Below, piece after piece: positions 9,464 through 61,883 of a stretch of 64,000 nt of DNA (positions within the stretch are counted from its first letter, which is position 1; the number at the start of each line of letters is the position of its first letter). Under the pieces are notes generated by a model that ran no database searches, had not been told where the DNA came from, and saw only the letters and a program-made list of their open reading frames with translations. Where the stretch lies: IMG/VR virus record IMGVR_UViG_3300014695_000002, positions 22,000-85,999 of that record, one strand, 5' to 3'. Position numbers and translations under genes: made by a program. The DNA is from a virus (Duplodnaviria > Caudoviricetes).

Positions 9464-9900
9464 ACTTGCAAATCTCCTTCTGTATTAATATAGGGATAAG
9501 AATGAAGATGACAATAAATATGGATAAAATATACTGATAACTATCATTTTATGTCATTATTTTGACAACGTAAGTTGGTCAAATAGAGGGCTCTAAATGA
9601 GCCCTTGAGTGGCTGAGAGTATAGTAAACACAATACTTAGAGGTTACTTTATGTCGATTACACTTTTGGTCTGGAATTGAGTCAAAATAACTACAAATGG
9701 ATGATCTCCCTACAACTATCTCTATTTGCTAAGCACGGCAACCTCTCGATAGACAAATTCTATCCACAACTTTCACACAATAGCCTCCCTAAATAACCCC
9801 AATCAATAGATTTTAGCAACCAAACAACAGATAACAATAGAGATTGTTAATAAATAGGGAATTTATTACAACAGCTCTTTTAATAGAAATCTTTGTGAAA
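9464..9900. other. AT-rich non-coding tract with inverted and direct repeats; candidate origin or genome terminus
   Basis: No convincing ORF; TTATTTTGAC direct (9557) and inverted (9681); TTTATGTC at 9548 and 9648; hairpins; G-poor tract 9700-9900. Confidence 0.45.
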
Positions 9901-9908
9901 GAATCTTG

Positions 9909-9937
9909 TTGACGCGGTAGGAGAGAATGGAGATAAT
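9909..9937 (+). promoter_or_regulatory. sigma70-type promoter
   Basis: TTGACG-17-GATAAT. Confidence 0.8.
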
Positions 9938-9990
9938 AACTCCATCAAGACGAGACACGCAGTCTAGTCAAACAAGCCAGGAGCTACACC

Positions 9991-17492: not shown

Positions 17493-18278
17493 TTAATCGG
17501 TGATGTCAACTTGGTAATTTAGCAGAGCTTCATAAGCCCGATTATCAATCTTACCTTTCCATTTTTCTGCAAGTTTAACAGCCAACATTTCCTTATGCTG
17601 CTTATATACATAGAATGCCTCCTCTACAGTTTCAAATCCTCCAAGGCATATAGGTCTTCCATTTTCTACGCTTTGGCTCCTAAAGTAAGAACTGCCATTA
17701 TACCTATAAGCAATGTCTACTCCAACAGGAAGATTGTTTTGTCTTTTCCTTTTGATAAATGAGTTTATCTCTTGAGGCAGATATATGCAAGTATTTTCTG
17801 AATACTCTTTATTGTTTTTGATAAGTAAATCTTTATCTAATTGCCAAGTCTCTTCAAAACCTATTTGCTTTGTCGCCCACTCTGCAAAGATTTGAAAATT
17901 CCACCAAGCTTTATTAATGGACTTATCTTTATAGCTATCCCTTACCTGCGTCTTAGAATAGCATCTTTTCATCATACTGTTCCAATCTGCATATTCAGGG
18001 GTATGCTTACCGTCAATTTTTGCTACATAGGGTCCTTGTCCATAAAATCCAATACCACAAACGGAGGGTTTACCAGGGTTTTTAAAAGAACCCATGAGAA
18101 GGTTGGCTGTTGTTACTACAACCTCAGCGCCGTAGTCGTCTGTGAATTTAAGCTTGTATCGCCTTTTATCCACAAACTCTATAACTTGAGCCTCGCAACC
18201 TTGCTTGTTTTTGAATAACCCTCCCAAGAATATTTTACGGTTCTTATGAAGACTTCCGTCTTTGTTTGCATATATCAT
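17493..18278 (-). CDS. HNH homing endonuclease
   Basis: WNSMMKRCY...WQLDKDLL..NNKEYSENTC.YLP.EIN; AT-rich; inserted between ClpP-like and PhoH genes. Confidence 0.85.
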   Translation of the reverse strand: MIYANKDGSLHKNRKIFLGGLFKNKQGCEAQVIEFVDKRRYKLKFTDDYGAEVVVTTANLLMGSFKNPGKPSVCGIGFYGQGPYVAKIDGKHTPEYADWNSMMKRCYSKTQVRDSYKDKSINKAWWNFQIFAEWATKQIGFEETWQLDKDLLIKNNKEYSENTCIYLPQEINSFIKRKRQNNLPVGVDIAYRYNGSSYFRSQSVENGRPICLGGFETVEEAFYVYKQHKEMLAVKLAEKWKGKIDNRAYEALLNYQVDITD

Positions 18279-25403: not shown

Positions 25404-25434
25404 AGCGCACCTCCTCGTTTGGTTGATAGGACAT

Positions 25435-25462
25435 ACGATACCACAGATTTTCAGTGAGTCAA
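25435..25462 (-). promoter_or_regulatory. leftward sigma70-type promoter
   Basis: TTGACT-16-TATCGT with TG extension, divergent from the 25507 promoter. Confidence 0.6.
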
Positions 25463-25506
25463 CAGGTGAGTGAAAATATTTTTAGAAAGATTTTTGGCGG
25501 ATGGGC

Positions 25507-25535
25507 TTGACATCACAGCTAGAGCATGAGATACT
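25507..25535 (+). promoter_or_regulatory. sigma70-type promoter of candidate ncRNA A
   Basis: TTGACA-17-GATACT. Confidence 0.8.
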
Positions 25536-25541
25536 TCTAAA

Positions 25542-25900
25542 GGTCAGAGAGAATCTGAATCGGCACTGATGGGGTATGCCTCTTGTTATAGGGAGGAGAG
25601 ACTTAGCGTCAGTTGCTTAAACCCCTACTACCGAGGCGATGGGATGGGGCGGGAGAAGCTTGAAGGTCGTTAAACTCCTGTATGGCCGTAGACTTTAGCA
25701 CAAGTAAAGACGATCCATCTGCCGAGGGTGCTACTTCGGGCAGATTACCACACACTCTATTGGTGTGTTCCTATCGAAATTGATAGGCTTGAATTCGGGA
25801 CGCTCAGTATAGTCTTGAAGAGAAGGTATGGGCTTTACTCTGGGGATTCAAGATTAATTTCTTGACCCTGGGGTAGGGCTTTTTATACCTTCTTGAAATC
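25542..25900 (+). ncRNA. candidate large structured ncRNA, copy A
   Basis: No ORF; GC-richer than flanks; multiple hairpins including a long G-U-rich stem 25822-25892; shares an exact 19-mer and collinear motifs with 52200-52614. Confidence 0.65.
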
Positions 25901-25963
25901 GAACTTTCAGTATAGTATAAAAGATATAAGAATTAATAGATAAATAAACATAGGAGTTAAGAT

Positions 25964-31715: not shown

Positions 31716-33941
31716 ATGTTTATTCCTGATAAGTCAAAAGTAAATATTATCGATGCTTCTGGAATGACAGCCGATTGGCCTATTCAGCAGCTTCCTTATA
31801 AAGCTTCAGATGGTACAATTAAAGGTTCTGGTCTTAGGATTCTAACCAGTGGTACAGTGCTCGCTCCTGTAGGCTTTGCTGTAGAATCTGGCTCTGTTGA
31901 CTTTGGTGATGTGCTAAGACTCTCTGAGTCTGCTGGTTTTCTAGCTTTTGAAAACATGGTAGATAAAAGTAAATATCAACTTCTAGATTATGCAGTCCCT
32001 CGTGATGCGGCATCCTCTAAACCATTTTACTTTAAACTTGCCGGACCTGAAGTGAGATTTGAAGCGAATAAATCTTCTGCTTCAGTTATCAAGACTAACC
32101 CCCTTAGCTGGGAATATACCACTAAGCTCACTGCTCGTACCAATGCTCTTATCTTCAATGCAGCAGAGAAGATGAACAATGTTCGTCTACGGATTACTGA
32201 TAAGAAGAGCGGGGTAGCAATCAAGTATTATCCATCTAAGTCGGCTTGGGTAGATGGTTCTGGTGGTACTATTCTTGATGTGGGCGAAAACAACCTAGAC
32301 TTCCAAGATACTGCGGTAATTTTCTCTGCCAACACTGATATTATTTTTGATATTCAAGCTGATAATATTGCTTTGGTTGGTGGTACTATCCCTTGGTTTG
32401 CAGGATTGGTTCAGCAGGGAAGTTTTGTTGGCGTAGCGGATGTTTTTGACGTATCTGCATTGCAAGATCAAATCAATAAGCAGAAGGCATCTTTCAACGG
32501 TGATTATAGCGCCCTTACAGGCGTTCCTACGAGCTTTCCGCCTTCTCCCCATACGCATGTAGTGGATGACATTACCGACCTTCCTAGCAAGCTTACAGAG
32601 CTTTCTAGCGCTATATCTCAAAACACTCAAAGCCTGAATGGATTGGCTAAGGTTGCAACGACTGCAAGCTACACTGATCTTGTAAATCAACCCTTTATTC
32701 CAACCGCTACAAGTCAGATTGAGAATAATAGCGGATACATTACGATCCAACATACTCATCCAATAAGTGACGTTGTTGGTTTGCAAGATGCTTTAAACTC
32801 TAAAGCTGGAAGTAATGAGTCTATTCCCGTCTCTCGTGTGACAGGTTTAGCTACAGTTGCGACTAGTGGAAGCTACAATGATCTTAGCAACAAGCCAACT
32901 ATTCCAACCAATGTAAGTCAGCTTGCAAATGATAGTGGTTATATTACTGCTGCTCAAGTGCCTCAGCAGACAGTAACTTGGGCAAGTATTACAGGTAAAC
33001 CAGTAACATTTACACCTTCTGCTCACCAGCATCCTATTAGTGATATAACTGGTTTGCAGAACACGCTAAATGCAAAAATAGATGCTTCTACTCAGATTAG
33101 CTACAACAATCTGACAGATAAGCCTAATCTATTTTCTGGCAATTATAACGATCTGATCAATAAGCCAACGTTGTTTTCTGGTAGCTATGCAGACCTTATC
33201 AATAAACCTGTTTATGCCACTGTAGCAACTACTGGCAGTTATAATGACCTCTTGAACAAACCTGTAATTCCTACAGTTAACTATCCCGTGACTTCTGTTG
33301 CTGGTAAGACTGGTGCTGTGACTTTGGTTGCGGGTGACATTAGTGGTCTAGCTTCTGTAGCAACTACTGGAATGTATTCGAGTCTTTCTGGATTGCCTAC
33401 TATCCCTGCTGCTCAGGTTAACAGTGATTGGAATGCAACAAGTGGTGTTGCTCAGATTCTAAATAAACCAAGCCTTTTCAGTGGTTCTTGGACTGATCTG
33501 ACAAACAAGCCCACTACATTTACTCCGTCTGCGCATCAACACCCCATCAGTGATATTACCAATCTTCAAACAACGCTTGACACTAAAATTACTGCTGCAA
33601 GTTTACCGATAACAAGGCGTGCAGACAATAGCTTAGTGTCTCGCACAAAGGTTAAGTACTACAAAGTCACAAGCGACAGCACAAGCTCTATTTGGACTGT
33701 TAATCTGGGAAGTGATTTCAGCGAGATTCTAGATATTCAAGTTCAGGCAGAGTCAGTTAGTACCCTTCTAGGTGGCATTAGACAGGTAAGTATAAATAGT
33801 TGGACTTCTACCTCAACGACTATAACGGGTATGACTTTTGGTTCAAACACCATCACTACAATTCTTATTGGCGGCTCTCAGGGTCTAGCTTTAGTCCCAG
33901 GAACAGTTGTCCGTTGTCGAGTTGAAGGCGTAGGCGGTTGA
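31716..33941 (+). CDS. long repeat-rich fibre protein
   Basis: Repeats SY.DL.NKP, H.HPISDI.GL, SQL.NDSGYIT, VTSVAGKTGAVTL, QVNSDWNA. Confidence 0.8.
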   Translation: MFIPDKSKVNIIDASGMTADWPIQQLPYKASDGTIKGSGLRILTSGTVLAPVGFAVESGSVDFGDVLRLSESAGFLAFENMVDKSKYQLLDYAVPRDAASSKPFYFKLAGPEVRFEANKSSASVIKTNPLSWEYTTKLTARTNALIFNAAEKMNNVRLRITDKKSGVAIKYYPSKSAWVDGSGGTILDVGENNLDFQDTAVIFSANTDIIFDIQADNIALVGGTIPWFAGLVQQGSFVGVADVFDVSALQDQINKQKASFNGDYSALTGVPTSFPPSPHTHVVDDITDLPSKLTELSSAISQNTQSLNGLAKVATTASYTDLVNQPFIPTATSQIENNSGYITIQHTHPISDVVGLQDALNSKAGSNESIPVSRVTGLATVATSGSYNDLSNKPTIPTNVSQLANDSGYITAAQVPQQTVTWASITGKPVTFTPSAHQHPISDITGLQNTLNAKIDASTQISYNNLTDKPNLFSGNYNDLINKPTLFSGSYADLINKPVYATVATTGSYNDLLNKPVIPTVNYPVTSVAGKTGAVTLVAGDISGLASVATTGMYSSLSGLPTIPAAQVNSDWNATSGVAQILNKPSLFSGSWTDLTNKPTTFTPSAHQHPISDITNLQTTLDTKITAASLPITRRADNSLVSRTKVKYYKVTSDSTSSIWTVNLGSDFSEILDIQVQAESVSTLLGGIRQVSINSWTSTSTTITGMTFGSNTITTILIGGSQGLALVPGTVVRCRVEGVGG

Positions 33942-33965
33942 CAAGTACATTTTATCTGCTATAAT
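33938..33965 (+). promoter_or_regulatory. consensus sigma70 promoter overlapping the fibre stop codon
   Basis: TTGACA-16-TATAAT. Confidence 0.8.
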
Positions 33966-34125
33966 TGTTTACGCGTGGTCCCGGCGATACGGGACAACCA
34001 AAGACTGCGCAACGGTCTGAAAAACGTGTAACAGGTAAGACTTCTACAGCAAATCACTCTTTTAAGAGGGTTTGTTATGCGTCCCCTGTTGCGACTTAAC
34101 TGGGTGATTTGACTATAGAGGTTTT

Positions 34126-34817
34126 ATGAAACTGCTTTGTGATTTTGGAATCAATGACTTAAATTATTCTGTTTTAGAAAGAGAGATTATTTCGGGAAAG
34201 GTTCAAACAGAAAATATAAGGTCTTATTTGCGTGCCCCTTCTATCAAACGTGGCATGACATGATTCATAGGTGTTATTCTAATAAAATGACATCAAGAAG
34301 AATGAGGTACTTAGGTTGTTCGGTTAATCTTGCTTGGTCGAGAGCAACAGAATTTAAAAAGTGGATGTTAGAAAATAATTGGAACGAATCCCTTAGACTT
34401 GATAAAGATATTCTTTTCCCTGGAAATAAAGAGTATGGTCCAGATACTTGTGCATTAGTACCTCACTATGTGAACGCAAGCATTGTTCTGCCAGATAGCT
34501 CGGATTCGTTTTTGCCGTATGGAGTTACTTATCAGAGTGTATATAAAGACGATCCACGTCCTGCGATAAAAAGGTATCAAGTTAGATGTTGTACTGGAGG
34601 TCCTGATAGCTTTAGAAGACATCTAGGAAGTTTTTCTTGTTCGATGGAAGCTCATAAAGTTTGGCAATTAGCAAAGATAGAATCACTTGATAACACTTTA
34701 AGCCATTATTCTAAAGAATCTTGCTACAGAAAAGATGTTGTCGATGCAATAGAGTTCAGAATAGCTATGATACTAAGCGATCTAAACCTAGGTATTGAAA
34801 CTAAAAGTTTTAAATAG
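34126..34817 (+). CDS. HNH homing endonuclease split by a -1 frameshift (programmed, or pseudogene)
   Basis: ATG 34126 frame MKLLCDFGINDLNY..SGK is homologous to the N-terminus of 61284..61883; -1 frame continues GSNRKYKVLFACPFYQTWHDMIHRCY; GGGAAAG at 34194-34200. Confidence 0.75.
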
Positions 34818-51294: not shown

Positions 51295-52191
51295 ATGAAG
51301 TATAAAGACTATTACATTAATAATGGGTATCAGCTTGTTATTGGAGATTACAAGAATGATCCAAACAATGGAGTCTTGATTGATAATCTCCAAATCACTT
51401 TTGAAGTAAGTAAGTCTATCAGTAATAAAGACAAGACAAACTCAGCTACTATTGAGATTTATAACCTTGATGAGCAGACTATAGCACTGCTTGACAAAGA
51501 GTTTATTGTTGCTGACTTCTATGCTGGATTTGAGAATCTTGAGATTAAGAGGTTATTTGCTGGAGAGGTTGTGCAGGCCACTACACGAAAGCAAGGAACG
51601 GATGTTGTAACTCAAATCCGTATGGGGGCGGGTTACTCTCAGGTTAATCATGGTGTTTTAAACCAATTAGTTAGCCCTGGTCGTACTGTTAAGGAAGTGT
51701 ATGAGGAGCTTCGTAAGAATATCTCTGGTATTAACAGGGGTGTTTATAATGGAGCTAATCTAAACAATCCTGTCATTGATGGATACCCCATATACGGTAA
51801 TGCTAAATCTGAACTTAACAAGCTTAGCCAAGCTACTCAGACACAATGGCAGATTGATGGCGATGCTTTGTATGTCTCTGATGCTGGTGTAGGTTGGATG
51901 AGTGATAAATCAAGAGCTATCGTTATCTCTCCTGAATCTGGATTGATTGATATTGCATACAAGGTAGCTGCTGAGGGTTATAAAAAGAAACAAGACCCAG
52001 CTAAGACTGAAGGTATTCAGTTTAAGGCACTATTAAATCCTAATGTCATCCCTGGCTGTATCATCAAATTAGAACAAGATGATCAAACTCTTGATGGCTT
52101 CTATACTGTCACCTCTACAAGATTTACTGGAGACTTCAGGGGTAATCCTTGGTATGTTGAGTGTCGTTGTGGTAAGAAGATTAGTAGTTAA
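51295..52191 (+). CDS. baseplate hub (gp27/gpD-like)
   Basis: ITFEVSKS...NSATIEIYNL, WQIDGD, LLNP...PG...L...DGFY.V. Confidence 0.85.
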   Translation: MKYKDYYINNGYQLVIGDYKNDPNNGVLIDNLQITFEVSKSISNKDKTNSATIEIYNLDEQTIALLDKEFIVADFYAGFENLEIKRLFAGEVVQATTRKQGTDVVTQIRMGAGYSQVNHGVLNQLVSPGRTVKEVYEELRKNISGINRGVYNGANLNNPVIDGYPIYGNAKSELNKLSQATQTQWQIDGDALYVSDAGVGWMSDKSRAIVISPESGLIDIAYKVAAEGYKKKQDPAKTEGIQFKALLNPNVIPGCIIKLEQDDQTLDGFYTVTSTRFTGDFRGNPWYVECRCGKKISS

Positions 52192-52199
52192 TTAGATAT

Positions 52200-52614
52200 A
52201 AGATTTATACTTGCTACTGATTTTGAAGAATTTTGGGTAAAGAAACCCATACCGTTCATAAGCTAGCTTTCTAGCTCCTAGAACGATACTTGGCTTGATT
52301 ACCCCATTCTCCAACATACAGCCGTTAAGCCAAAGGCCCTTGCTACTTGATATGTTAGATATTGCCCGAAGGCTGCGTTTAGAGACGGCTCGCAATAACG
52401 CCTGGGTGCTATAGACTAATACACAGCTATAACTTTGACTGCCTTCCCCGGTGTTTCGGGTCATACCCTGTTCAGTCGTCACTCAGTTGGTCTTTGGTTT
52501 GCGTGGTAGACCTTTAAATCATATCGCCCCCGTCTACCTCCCTATAACAAGAGGCTTACCGTCCAATATGATCGATTTGAAAGAATGTCGTTACCGTTAG
52601 ACTTTCAAAATGTA
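52200..52614 (-). ncRNA. candidate large structured ncRNA, copy B, antisense to the tail operon
   Basis: Promoter at 52621-52649; many hairpins; shares GCCTCTTGTTATAGGGAGG and collinear motifs with copy A. Confidence 0.65.
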
Positions 52615-52620
52615 TTAACC

Positions 52621-52649
52621 ATTGTACAGGCGATAGTGTCTCCTGTCAA
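52621..52649 (-). promoter_or_regulatory. sigma70-type antisense promoter
   Basis: TTGACA-17-TACAAT on the - strand. Confidence 0.85.
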
Positions 52650-52668
52650 CACCTTTAGGAGAAATTAG

Positions 52669-53403
52669 GTGGCAGATCAAGAGATATCGTTACAAGAGAC
52701 ATTGCAATCTGCTGTAGAGCATCACCTTGAGAACATGAATACTTGTGTTCCAGGCTTTGTCATTCGCACAATCAATGACTTGCAAGGTCAGCAAATAGAC
52801 GTTCAGATCGCTATCAACTTCAAAGGATATGATGGTAGCTCACAAGAACGTCCTCCAATTCTCAATGTACCTGTCGTATTTCCAGCTTCATCTACCAGCG
52901 CTATTACCTTCCCGTTGAATCCTGGTGACCCTGTATTGCTTGTATTCAGTCAGCGTGGTCTTACAGCTTGGAAGGGTAGCAATGGTTACGCTTCTACTCC
53001 TACAGACTATCGAATGCACGACATCCGTGACTGTTTCGCAATCCCCGGCCCCTTCCCTGTAGGACGTGCTCCAAACAACCCTGCTAAACGCCGCTGGCCT
53101 CACTCTACGCATGATTTAGTGGTAGCCCATAACCTAGGTAGCGGTACAGAGGTTGAGCTTCGTCTGAGCGAATCTGGAAGCCTTATAATCAACACAGATA
53201 TGAATGTTGAAATTAATGCAACGCAAGCCTTGGTTAATGTACCTAATAGCACTTGGACAGGTGATATCAATCACACAGGTATGTTTATAAACAACGGAGT
53301 TGTAATGAGCAATGGAGTAACCCTCCATAGTCATACTCATAATCAGCCAGCAGATAGCGGTGGTGATACTGAACTACCAACCTTCCCACCAAACCCAGGA
53401 TAG
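52669..53403 (+). CDS. baseplate central spike (gpV/Gp138-like)
   Basis: LNVPVVFP, PLNPGD.VLLVFSQR, DCFAIPG, C-terminal LHSHTH metal site. Confidence 0.88.
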   Translation: MADQEISLQETLQSAVEHHLENMNTCVPGFVIRTINDLQGQQIDVQIAINFKGYDGSSQERPPILNVPVVFPASSTSAITFPLNPGDPVLLVFSQRGLTAWKGSNGYASTPTDYRMHDIRDCFAIPGPFPVGRAPNNPAKRRWPHSTHDLVVAHNLGSGTEVELRLSESGSLIINTDMNVEINATQALVNVPNSTWTGDINHTGMFINNGVVMSNGVTLHSHTHNQPADSGGDTELPTFPPNPG

Positions 53404-53785: not shown

Positions 53786-55240
53786 ATGGCAGATTACGGA
53801 TTAACAGAAAACGGTGTAGTGATTAAGAGGATCAGCGATATCCTCACCAGCAATAGAGCCTTGGCTGTAACTCTATTCCAAGATCAAGTATTGCCAGGAG
53901 ATGTTGTAGATACGTCAGATAGCTCAATTCTGGGGCGTTTGATTGCACTGGCTAGCCCAGGTGAGGCTGATCTTTGGGAGGCCGTACAAGAACTGTATGA
54001 TGCCTTTAATTCAGAGGCAGCAAGTGGCATCGCTCTAGACAACCTTGTAGCGCTATCTGGCTTGATTCGTAAAGATGCAACGTCAACTACTGCACTAGGA
54101 TTGCTAACAGGTTCTATTGGTGTAACAGTTCCTAGTTCAGTTGATATTCAGTCAACTACCAGCAACACTATTTACAACCTTTCAACACCAGTGACTTTTT
54201 CACCAATTTCAGCTAACGGAGTTGGTGTATCTGTCTTGACAGTTAGCGATGCTTCGAGTTATACTGTAACTTACACAGACAGCTCTACTAGCTCAACTTC
54301 AAGCTACACGTCTGGTGTAGGCGCAACACAAGCATCTATATTGGCCGGTCTAAAGACTTTTATTGACGCCAACCAACCAGCGCTTGTTGCCGCAATAAAC
54401 AACAATATCTTGTATGTAAACAAGAAAGATTCATCCTCACTTTCAAACTTCACTGTCAGTTCAAATCTAGGTATTGTCAAAGCATCGAACCTCACATACC
54501 TTGTATCTGAGACGACTGGTCCAATTAGTGAAGAAGCTGGTTCGATCACTAATATTCTTACTCCTGTGTTGAATTGGGATAGTGTAACAAACCCTTTTAA
54601 TGCTGTTGCAGGCTCAAATCAAGAAACTGATACGGAGCTTCGTGAACGCTTTCGTTCAAGTAAGGCATCTCGTGCATCTAACATCATTGAATCTCTATAC
54701 TCCTCTCTTGAGGCATTGGATAACGTAGAAGAGGTTGTGATTTACGAAAACGTGATGGACGCAGTTGATGCAAGTGGTATCCCAGGACACAGTTTCATGA
54801 GCCTAGTTCTTGGTGGTGTAGACTCAGATATTGCTCAGGCTATTTGGAATAACAAACCTGCTGGTATTAGGACTTTTGGTAACACGTCTTATCAAATTCT
54901 TGATAGTCAAGGTAATCCACATACTGTAAACTTCCAACGTCCCGTTCAAGTCCCAATCTATATCAACATCAACCTCACCAAGTTTCCACAGTATCCAAGC
55001 AATGGTGATGCACTAATTAGGCAAGCACTGATTGATTATTTTGATGCTAACTTTGGCATTGGCGATAGCGTGATTTACTCACGTTTGTACACACCTATTA
55101 ACTCCGTTCCAGGGCATCAGATTAATAGCCTAACCATAGGCACTTCACCAAACCCAACTCAGATGCAGAACATTCCAATCTCCTTTACTCAGATTGCATC
55201 CCTATCTTCTGCAAACATTATCGTCTCATCCACTCAATAA
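53786..55240 (+). CDS. baseplate J-like wedge protein
   Basis: ASGIALDNL, GSNQETDTELRERF, IPGHS, IAQAIW..KPAGI. Confidence 0.88.
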   Translation: MADYGLTENGVVIKRISDILTSNRALAVTLFQDQVLPGDVVDTSDSSILGRLIALASPGEADLWEAVQELYDAFNSEAASGIALDNLVALSGLIRKDATSTTALGLLTGSIGVTVPSSVDIQSTTSNTIYNLSTPVTFSPISANGVGVSVLTVSDASSYTVTYTDSSTSSTSSYTSGVGATQASILAGLKTFIDANQPALVAAINNNILYVNKKDSSSLSNFTVSSNLGIVKASNLTYLVSETTGPISEEAGSITNILTPVLNWDSVTNPFNAVAGSNQETDTELRERFRSSKASRASNIIESLYSSLEALDNVEEVVIYENVMDAVDASGIPGHSFMSLVLGGVDSDIAQAIWNNKPAGIRTFGNTSYQILDSQGNPHTVNFQRPVQVPIYININLTKFPQYPSNGDALIRQALIDYFDANFGIGDSVIYSRLYTPINSVPGHQINSLTIGTSPNPTQMQNIPISFTQIASLSSANIIVSSTQ

Positions 55241-61249: not shown

Positions 61250-61288
61250 GAAGCCCGCCCCGGAGAAATCTGGGGCGGGATTTTTATT
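61250..61288. terminator. probable bidirectional intrinsic terminator between convergent blocks
   Basis: CCCGCCCCGG/CTGGGGCGGG stem followed by a T tract on the + strand. Confidence 0.75.
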
Positions 61289-61883
61289 GTTTGTAGTTTT
61301 CGTACCTATCAATGAGAGCTTTTGCTATACGCGGATCAGATTGCTCTGAAGCAAGAAGCTTAGCTTGTTGAAGTTTATGCTTTAACCAAACTTCGTATGC
61401 CTCCTGTGCGTCATCAAAAAGACCAAGATGTCGCCGCTTGCCCGTCTCAAGAGAGAAACCTTGAGCAGCAAATCTTCCAGTACCTTTGTGTATGCACACA
61501 CCTATGGGAAACTCTCCCCGTTTCGCCGTCCTTTCAGTTAGAAAGTTGTTAATAGCTCTGCTAACAAATACACAAGTATCTGGTCCGTAAATTTTATTTC
61601 CAATCACTAACAAGTCTTTGTCTAAAAATTTATTCTCCCATTCTTGTTTTTCCATCCAAGCTTTAAAGTTCATGAAGTATTGCCACTCTGGAATAACTAA
61701 ACAACCTTTGTAAGTTGGGTGGCTTTCTTGAAATTTATCAGAATAGCACCTCCTGAGCATTTCTGTCCATATCACATAGAACGGACAAACCCAATATCTA
61801 ACTGGTTTACCATTTATGTTCTCATACTTCTGTACGTTATAATCAGCATCATTAATTCCAACACCGTAAACCAGCTTACCCAT
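61284..61883 (-). CDS. HNH homing endonuclease
   Basis: GVGIND, CPFY..W..MLRRCY, LDKDLL..GNKIYGPDTC.FV...IN. Confidence 0.88.
   Translation of the reverse strand: MGKLVYGVGINDADYNVQKYENINGKPVRYWVCPFYVIWTEMLRRCYSDKFQESHPTYKGCLVIPEWQYFMNFKAWMEKQEWENKFLDKDLLVIGNKIYGPDTCVFVSRAINNFLTERTAKRGEFPIGVCIHKGTGRFAAQGFSLETGKRRHLGLFDDAQEAYEVWLKHKLQQAKLLASEQSDPRIAKALIDRYENYKQ

Follow-up and report, generated by a model that had tools for sequence, protein, structure and literature searches.

The 477-nt gap between the baseplate hub and spike genes of an uncultured phage very probably contains a genuine, independently promoted and laterally exchanged structured RNA gene, here called RNA B. Comparison with related phages indicates that it is not merely an antisense insert: RNA B appears to belong to a family of large folded phage RNAs with two slots and several alleles, and to fill one of these slots. 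The second part of the explanation, that RNA B is a discrete accessory RNA with a trans-acting function exerted by binding a factor, is offered more tentatively. The explanation as a whole is assigned a probability of roughly 0.5, a single compromise figure between the gene and the trans-acting parts, and a modest chance is left to something not considered here.

Genomic setting

The window, the whole stretch of DNA that was analysed, covers 64 kb at the right-hand end of an IMG/VR virus record of 86 kb. The phage under study is labelled G000; among its relatives, L096 is the same as G008, L094 is the same as G009, and L060:840-1262 corresponds to G002:C1:16139-16561. The initial annotation described an interruption of ~480 nt in the baseplate operon, and the gap indeed runs from 52192 to 52668, between the hub stop at 52191 and the spike start at 52669 (Table 1). 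It lies in a myovirus baseplate block that comprises the tape measure, a Dit-like protein, a Pam3-gp18-type plug, the hub, the spike, a gp25-like wedge, and baseplate J. The hub is ~43% identical to those of Pseudomonas phages like phiPsa374 and vB_PsaM_M1.

The genome encodes ribonucleotide reductase, thymidylate synthase, DNA polymerase, primase-helicase, PhoH, and dCMP deaminase, and from the rest of the genome this looks like a lytic phage. Neither a phage RNA polymerase nor a reverse transcriptase was found among the 20 largest early-region proteins, an absence that is provisional because the scan covered these proteins only. At least five HNH endonuclease genes are present in the genome; three of the HNH genes belong to PHROG 953 and are paralogous to the nuclease that adjoins RNA B in the related phage G001. 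The HNH gene at 34260 is preceded by a perfect TTGACA-17-TATAAT (33939-33967) and a folded leader of ~150 nt, and a clean terminator closes the HNH gene at 61284. Elsewhere in the window, 500 nt without ORFs (9464-9963) fold moderately on the + strand (z -2.2).

Table 1. Coordinates of RNA B, copy A, their parts, and neighbouring or related features; positions without a contig label are those of the window.
Feature	Position	Strand	Evidence or remarks
Baseplate hub gene (left flank)	51295..52191	+	PHROG 196 at 3e-59; Pfam E217_GP41
Baseplate spike gene (right flank)	52669..53403	+	Pfam PF18352 at 1e-21, Gp138_N-type domain; own AGGAGA ribosome-binding site
RNA B, probable structured non-coding RNA, ~400 nt	52197..52616	-	No terminator at the 3' end; fold z, covariation, identity block
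Predicted sigma-70-type promoter of RNA B, TTGACA-17-TACAAT	52621..52649	-	11/12; start expected near 52614
P1, 5'-terminal hairpin	52576..52609	-	Internal loop UCUAA/ACAUU, GNRA-capped tip; common to types B, C, and D at the hub-spike slot
P2, 10-bp helix around the core hairpin	52517..52573	-	Flanks invariant: AAUCG (5'), UUAAA (3')
Core hairpin, 19-mer identical in copies A and B	52537..52555	-	6-bp stem with two U-G pairs, loop GUUAUA
P3 hairpin	52489..52512	-	Two pairs covary between A and B
3' domain	52216..52487	-	Long-range closing helix enclosing six helices (consensus helices 6-18)
Stem TCTAACATAT/GTATGTTGGA	52350-52359 / 52310-52319	-	Consensus helix 14
96-aa ORF, spurious	52192..52482	-	Frameshifts and stops in G002 and G001; no Pfam or PHROG match
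Copy A, RNA of ~370 nt with promoter TTGACA-17-GATACT (25507-25535)	25507..25905	+	z -4.4
Divergent promoter adjoining copy A, TTGACT-16-TATCGT	25462..25435	-	
Type C RNA, hub-spike slot	L030:3900-4389; L048:963-1452	-	
Type E RNA, A slot of G002	L060:878-1262		
T5orf172/MUG113-domain gene in the hub-spike junction, 184 aa	L094:3425-3979	-	
HNH endonuclease gene	17493-18278	-	
HNH endonuclease gene	34260-34817	+	
HNH endonuclease gene	61284-61883	-	
HNH endonuclease gene	L073:15827-16732	-	
Sigma-70-type promoter match TTGACA-18-TATACT	54236-54265	+	11/12; inside the baseplate J gene
Terminator-like hairpin	54201-54227		Immediately precedes the match at 54236-54265

Promoter and predicted transcript

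The initial annotation also reported TTGACA-17-TACAAT pointing against late transcription, and this promoter stands up well. It matches at 11 of 12 positions on the - strand (52649..52621), a score that one + strand site equals and no other site in the 20-kb late region exceeds. Five versions of the locus (G000, G001, G002, L030, and L031) preserve the two hexamers and the distance of 17 nt between them despite a variable spacer, and in G001 the spacer even codes for the C-terminus of an inserted endonuclease; fixed hexamers and spacing around a variable spacer are the pattern left by a working promoter. Host RNA polymerase would most likely transcribe RNA B from this site, opposite to the baseplate operon, and because the promoter is near consensus, transcription would probably be early and strong. 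Both the promoter and the transcript ends are predictions. A second sigma-70-type match at 11/12, preceded immediately by a terminator-like hairpin, lies inside the baseplate J gene.

No intrinsic terminator was found behind RNA B, type C, or type E. Since none follows RNA B, read-through antisense to the hub is possible, and RNA B could be just the 5' part of a longer transcript at this locus. The same caveat extends to other members of the family, which could be a sense leader at the A locus and the leader of an endonuclease gene in L031.

Fold and covariation

RNA B folds strongly and in a strand-specific manner. The - strand reaches -126 kcal/mol (z -4.2 against shuffles), compared with z -1.3 for the + strand, and many of its G-U pairs would become A-C mismatches on the opposite strand. 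Together with copy A, a second RNA elsewhere in the window, RNA B is the most structured among the 14 intergenic gaps of the genome.

Covariation was assessed in three orthologues: G000, G002 (94.5% identical by global alignment), and G001 (~84%). RNAalifold predicts 123 pairs, and 98.9% of cells are paired. Compensatory changes affect 16 pairs, against 6.9 in shuffles, and 0 of 500 shuffles reach 16; when the partners are slid by one to three columns as a control, 0-1 compensatory pairs remain. The block of at least 90% identity between G000 and G002 extends from ~52190 to ~52615. With seven phage contigs and one metagenome fragment, the family comprises just eight sequence sources, so the covariation rests on few sequences. 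The gap nonetheless probably holds an independently transcribed RNA gene, as was initially proposed: the consensus promoter is conserved, the fold is specific to one strand and covaries, and the reading frame is broken.

The consensus fold begins with P1, whose inner 2-bp stem covaries (CG/CG, CC/GG, GC/GC) and whose outer stem is fully compensated in L096. The core hairpin enclosed by P2 does not occur in the other body types described below (C, D, and E). In the 3' domain, one hairpin carries a UUCG tetraloop that is exchanged for GUAA in G001, and a long terminal hairpin ends in an AGCUAG/CUAGCU tip. At 17 of 19 positions, three G-U pairs included, the loop region of P1 (52583-52601) could pair with the final codons of the hub mRNA (52159-52177); this complementarity is probably due to chance and does not hold for type C. 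No convincing terminal repeats of the RNA cassette were found.

The individual helices proposed in the initial annotation fared unevenly against this consensus. The AGCTAG/CTAGCT hairpin is corroborated by three compensatory pairs (helix 18). The stem TCTAACATAT/GTATGTTGGA would form 10 bp and belongs to the 3' domain of the consensus fold, where all three orthologues keep it unchanged. The proposed 7-bp pseudoknot between TTGGCTT and AAGCCAA is disfavoured: 81% of its cells are paired, with one compensation and four broken cells, and it competes with a helix that is paired in all three orthologues. Its 3' strand fits better into the long terminal hairpin, where the changes in G002 and G001 are accommodated. 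GGTAGAC/GTCTACC (80% paired, one covarying pair) is weak and conflicts with the invariant core hairpin and P3, a region that covaries between copies A and B. TGGGT/ACCCA may form, as it is 93% paired, but it shows no compensation, and the same bases form part of a long-range helix that does have one.

Two slots and five body types

Copy A stands where leftward genes give way to rightward genes, the latter continuing on the + strand for ~35 kb. Its neighbour genes have no recognisable domains, RNA-binding ones included. BLAST finds only a 24-nt stretch in common between copy A and RNA B; over their 5' 130 nt, the two have the same order of P1, AAUCG, P2, core hairpin, UUAAA, and P3. Six of the 10 P2 pairs covary between A and B, and nine of 10 do so across types A, B, D, and E in a model-guided alignment that is biased towards the model. 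The region around copy A (window 25404-25963, genome 47403-47962) sits at the cumulative GC-skew minimum, and a divergent promoter adjoins it on the - strand.

Because plain E-INS-i could not align all types reliably and its alignment yields no consensus fold, the family was traced with R1, a covariance model of the 5' domain. R1 finds exactly two loci in each of three complete genomes and nothing else there. The three B copies score 155-158 bits and the three A copies 103-108, followed by type D at 54, type C at 24 (P1 only), and type E at 18. Members present P1, AAUCG, P2, UUAAA, and P3 behind a sigma-70-type promoter, type C fitting this plan worst.

These comparisons indicate two fixed slots per genome, each with its own promoter and 5' hairpin, that are filled by at least five very different bodies (types A-E). 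At the hub-spike slot, type C keeps the promoter and P1 and continues into a different RNA of ~480 nt (z -4.0) that is rich in GNRA tetraloops. The middle of type C has only short motifs in common with RNA B (UUUAAA, ACUG.GAGUGA). Type D is a third body at this slot, found in L031 (z -3.3) ahead of a degenerate HNH gene, and the type D pair has 11 compensatory pairs. In the A slot of G002, the locus retains the promoter of copy A (here TTGACG-17-TATCAT), P1, and AAUCGG, while the body, type E (~385 nt, z -3.2), is unrelated; the presence of type E in this slot makes both slots allelic. Across the five types, no pentamer is more enriched than AAUCG, with 9 occurrences where 1.3 are expected, and as it usually occurs once after P1 and once again downstream, it may be a repeated contact motif.

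Probable exchange at the hub-spike slot

The type of RNA body does not track phage lineage. Between G000 and G002, the hub is 58.5% and the spike 64.7% identical, whereas RNA B is 94.5% identical; between L030 and L048, the corresponding values are 58.7%, 60.9%, and, for RNA C, 95.5%. Different RNA types occur despite close hubs, which are 86.5% identical between G000 and L030 and 89% identical between G002 and L048. Identity rises from ~60% to more than 90% at the hub stop codon. For G000 vs G002 it drops again where transcription would start, and for L030 vs L048 slightly upstream of the promoter. Some of the high RNA identity between diverged phages could be due to purifying selection and not to recent transfer.

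Occupancy of the slot is equally variable. Nearly all of the ~70 IMG/VR relatives with both genes have a hub and a spike that overlap by 4 nt, and the gapless junction is found in ~65 relatives, including phiPsa374 and vB_PsaM_M1, where the two genes likewise overlap. Filled junctions are confined to this clade and two phages of another lineage. In one of these, L096, with a hub of 47% identity, TTGACT-17-TATAAT precedes a type D RNA on the - strand, and the internal loop of P1 is unchanged. Its relative L094 has instead a T5orf172/MUG113-domain gene, of the GIY-YIG-like mobile nuclease type, and no RNA copy was found in that phage. Taken together, these comparisons indicate that the slot is a hotspot, that the RNA is dispensable, and that bodies move between lineages.

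Homing endonuclease genes flank the RNA in two further genomes. A 210-aa HNH gene (PHROG 953, 6e-86) lies between the spike start and the RNA promoter in G001, its TAA stop just downstream of the -10 box of the RNA, and a degenerate HNH copy lies downstream of the RNA in L031. The remaining five of the seven junction copies (G000, G002, L030, L048, and L096) are nuclease-free. The mismatch between type and lineage, the ~65 relatives with abutting genes, and the adjoining endonucleases together argue for an accessory, laterally exchanged RNA cassette. The initial annotation had raised possible mobility and proposed comparing the hub-spike junction of related phages for presence or absence; RNA bodies of 94-96% identity in phages whose flanking genes are ~60% identical, alternative bodies in the same slot of sister phages, and the gapless junctions all lend weight to that suggestion.

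Coding potential and known RNA families

The RNA family is undescribed so far, being found in no catalogue and absent from Rfam 15. At gathering threshold, the Rfam 15 families, which include GOLLD, ROOL, group I and II introns, RNase P, tmRNA, 6S, and small ribozymes, have no match in the 64-kb window. Permissive searches, with E up to 10 around RNA B and copy A and up to 1 in the case of types C and D, returned only chance matches. ARAGORN found no tRNA or tmRNA in the window, and blastn against 50,697 deposited phages gave no match.

Pattern searches added little to the family. Exact scans with the core 16-19-mer through viral, metagenome, and genome collections returned, beyond the true copies, only chance matches with unrelated flanks. 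The core motif is confined to the two RNA loci and, by pattern scan, is not a motif of the host. L018 and L021 were rejected as family members: the likeness seemed slightly extended, but R1 matches the 16-mer only. Patterns built on the leader, the A-locus promoter, and the 3' tail yielded one new type C contig (L048) and no new A-locus genome, and their remaining matches are chance, in an unrelated gene. R1 found no member in vB_PsaM_M1, phiPsa374, or three other contigs.

Several other identities for the RNA or its parts were considered and set aside. A group I intron does not fit an element that lies between genes, on the opposite strand, and has no Intron_gpI match. A T7-type promoter in the core (…UAUAGGGAG…) is contradicted by the restriction of the motif to the two RNA loci, and no phage RNA polymerase was found among the larger proteins scanned. 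The likeness of CUCUU to boxA is too weak by eye. A decayed endonuclease gene was sought by tblastn with the G001 nuclease, which recovered three paralogues elsewhere in the window and nothing in A, B, C, or D.

Alternative explanations

The initial annotation suggested that RNA B could throttle tail-gene expression by transcriptional collision. In an elaborated form, early - strand transcription into the hub, plug, and tape-measure genes would damp leaky late expression, either through polymerase collision or through double-stranded RNA formed with the late polycistronic message that crosses the gap. The orientation against the late operon, a promoter that is joint best in the late region, the lack of a - strand terminator downstream, and a late message that must include the exact complement of RNA B all fit this interpretation. 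There is also a precedent in PAK_P3, a myovirus with a distantly related baseplate hub and antisense transcripts in its late region: of its 20 antisense RNAs, 15 map to the structural region and are early transcripts, and some are longer than 300 nt (PMC4933390). However, all PAK_P3 antisense RNAs except one are intragenic, with no claim of a conserved fold (PMC4933390), whereas RNA B has its own intergenic cassette, a covarying fold, and a sense-oriented paralogue.

Other features of the family also make cis-antisense interference an unlikely account of it. The fold of 400 nt is conserved with covariation, which interference would not require, and copy A and its allele type E follow the same plan in sense orientation, ahead of rightward genes. 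The ~65 gapless relatives and the sister phage G009, with its T5orf172-type gene in the slot, do without the RNA altogether. Whole-body allele swaps are unexpected for a device that needs just a promoter. Complementarity alone does not define RNA B, as it would a cis-encoded antisense RNA, given its compensated fold and the sense paralogue that shares it. The conserved body lies wholly within the gap, so that any overlap with the hub requires read-through, which the missing terminator allows. Collision therefore cannot be the common function of the family, although it may arise as a side effect because RNA B has no terminator.

A co-transcriptional leader, which would modify its own polymerase through processive antitermination or stabilise the transcript, is also improbable. 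The genome of phage HK022 has two put RNAs, putL and putR, each of which immediately follows an early host-type promoter; they resemble each other in structure more than in sequence. RNA B and copy A are likewise two per genome, each directly behind a sigma-70-type promoter, different in sequence and common in plan; none of the RNAs ends in a terminator, copy A heads rightward genes, and type D heads an endonuclease gene. The resemblance to the put RNAs is limited to copy number and to position behind a promoter. The put RNAs are ~70 nt, with two stem-loops and operons to read through, whereas RNA B is six times larger, and its ~400 nt and many peripheral helices are unlike known antitermination RNAs. 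No conserved downstream cargo was found on the - strand for types B and C, which leaves them without a read-through target and argues against a mere leader. The presence/absence polymorphism further speaks against a core role in transcription.

The RNA might also be part of a selfish homing-endonuclease cassette, serving as its leader, trailer, or ribozyme, with types B and C as remains after nuclease loss. Nuclease genes abut the RNA in G001 and L031, a T5orf172-type gene occupies the slot in L094, and the genome of this phage itself contains at least five HNH genes, including the one at 34260 with its consensus promoter and folded leader. As with the leaders of T-even homing endonuclease genes, there is an association with HNH-type genes in a nuclease-rich phage and a promoter followed by a folded 5' element. 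Unlike in those systems, however, most RNA copies are nuclease-free, and the position of the nuclease varies: it lies upstream of the RNA promoter in G001, and only in L031 is the RNA directly upstream of a nuclease gene and co-oriented with it. The five nuclease-free junction copies still show 94-96% conservation and intact covariation, no nuclease gene lies near the A-locus copies, and a search with the nuclease protein found no remnant inside the RNA, which makes this account rather unlikely too.

A DNA-level or R-loop element, such as the primer transcript of a replication origin made from a host-type promoter, is highly improbable. Transcripts of this kind include ColE1 RNA II and the T4 origin transcripts, and both the strong promoters before the two copies and the place of copy A, at the cumulative GC-skew minimum and a strand switch, would suit an origin. 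The skew minimum, however, simply tracks gene orientation, the many G-U pairs and the strand asymmetry of folding indicate RNA structure, and the element is missing from most relatives.

The small protein gene that the 96-aa ORF, open in G000, might represent, and whose conservation and translation the initial annotation named as grounds for abandoning an RNA gene, can be dismissed: the ORF is frameshifted and interrupted by stops in both orthologues and therefore is not a protein gene, substitutions fall on the three codon positions without third-position bias (6/6/5 in G002 and 21/19/13 in G001), and no family match was found.

Proposed mode of action

In the preferred explanation, an exchangeable RNA gene that acts through its fold, bodies would swap between diverged phages through recombination behind a fixed promoter and 5' hairpin. 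Co-conversion by homing endonuclease genes inserted beside the RNA, on one side or the other, would probably assist this exchange. Co-conversion around such genes, as in T-even homing, is an established route for moving flanking DNA, and it may have moved these RNAs. The chassis common to the bodies would consist of P1, AAUCG, P2, UUAAA, and P3, followed by a multi-helix 3' domain with a long final hairpin.

The RNA would act as a discrete molecule that binds a host or phage factor. Action through the fold is favoured by the shared covarying architecture, by the sense orientation at the A slot, and by the lack of cargo behind types B and C. Its role may be a dispensable accessory function of the host-takeover or the defence and counter-defence kind, and the antisense orientation at the hub-spike locus would be incidental, with at most a secondary effect. 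More speculatively, the family might represent a new class of exchangeable RNA genes of ~400 nt in lytic phages, with at least five deeply divergent types on a common chassis at two positions, exchanged between phages of only ~60% identity. Such a class would be the RNA counterpart of protein conflict cassettes (e.g., host-factor decoys or inhibitors), its diversity driven by conflict.

Relation to other large phage RNAs and implications

RNA B resembles GOLLD, ROOL, and an abundant ~800-nt transcript of the vibriophage ICP1 in being a large, intricately folded phage RNA that is free of ORFs (PMC7567579; PMC12286853). GOLLD RNA accumulates in lytic growth and yet is dispensable (PMC7567579; PMC12286853). 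Unlike GOLLD and ROOL, RNA B is smaller (~400 nt), has no sequence or structure match to the Rfam models, and is not near tRNA genes, of which the window has none. It further differs from them in the arrangement of two fixed slots, each with a locus-specific promoter and leader, that accept several exchangeable bodies.

The packaging RNA of the phi29 family offers a different parallel, as its architecture is kept while its sequence has diverged almost beyond recognition. RNA B has no similarity to it, the phage encodes a terminase and gives no sign of RNA-dependent packaging, and the RNA is dispensable in relatives.

For annotation, the family carries a warning, since the 96-aa ORF that a gene caller would place in the gap is spurious. 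Few products of viral genomes are as poorly understood as large folded phage RNAs such as GOLLD, ROOL, and the ICP1 transcript. The present family provides an informative piece of natural genetics, with a fixed socket (promoter and P1), alternative bodies, presence/absence variation, and sharp recombination boundaries, through which function becomes testable by cassette swap or deletion. Its bodies also form a compact set of related but very different folds that is useful for structural work. More broadly, recombination around homing endonuclease genes may carry RNA genes as well as protein genes between phages.
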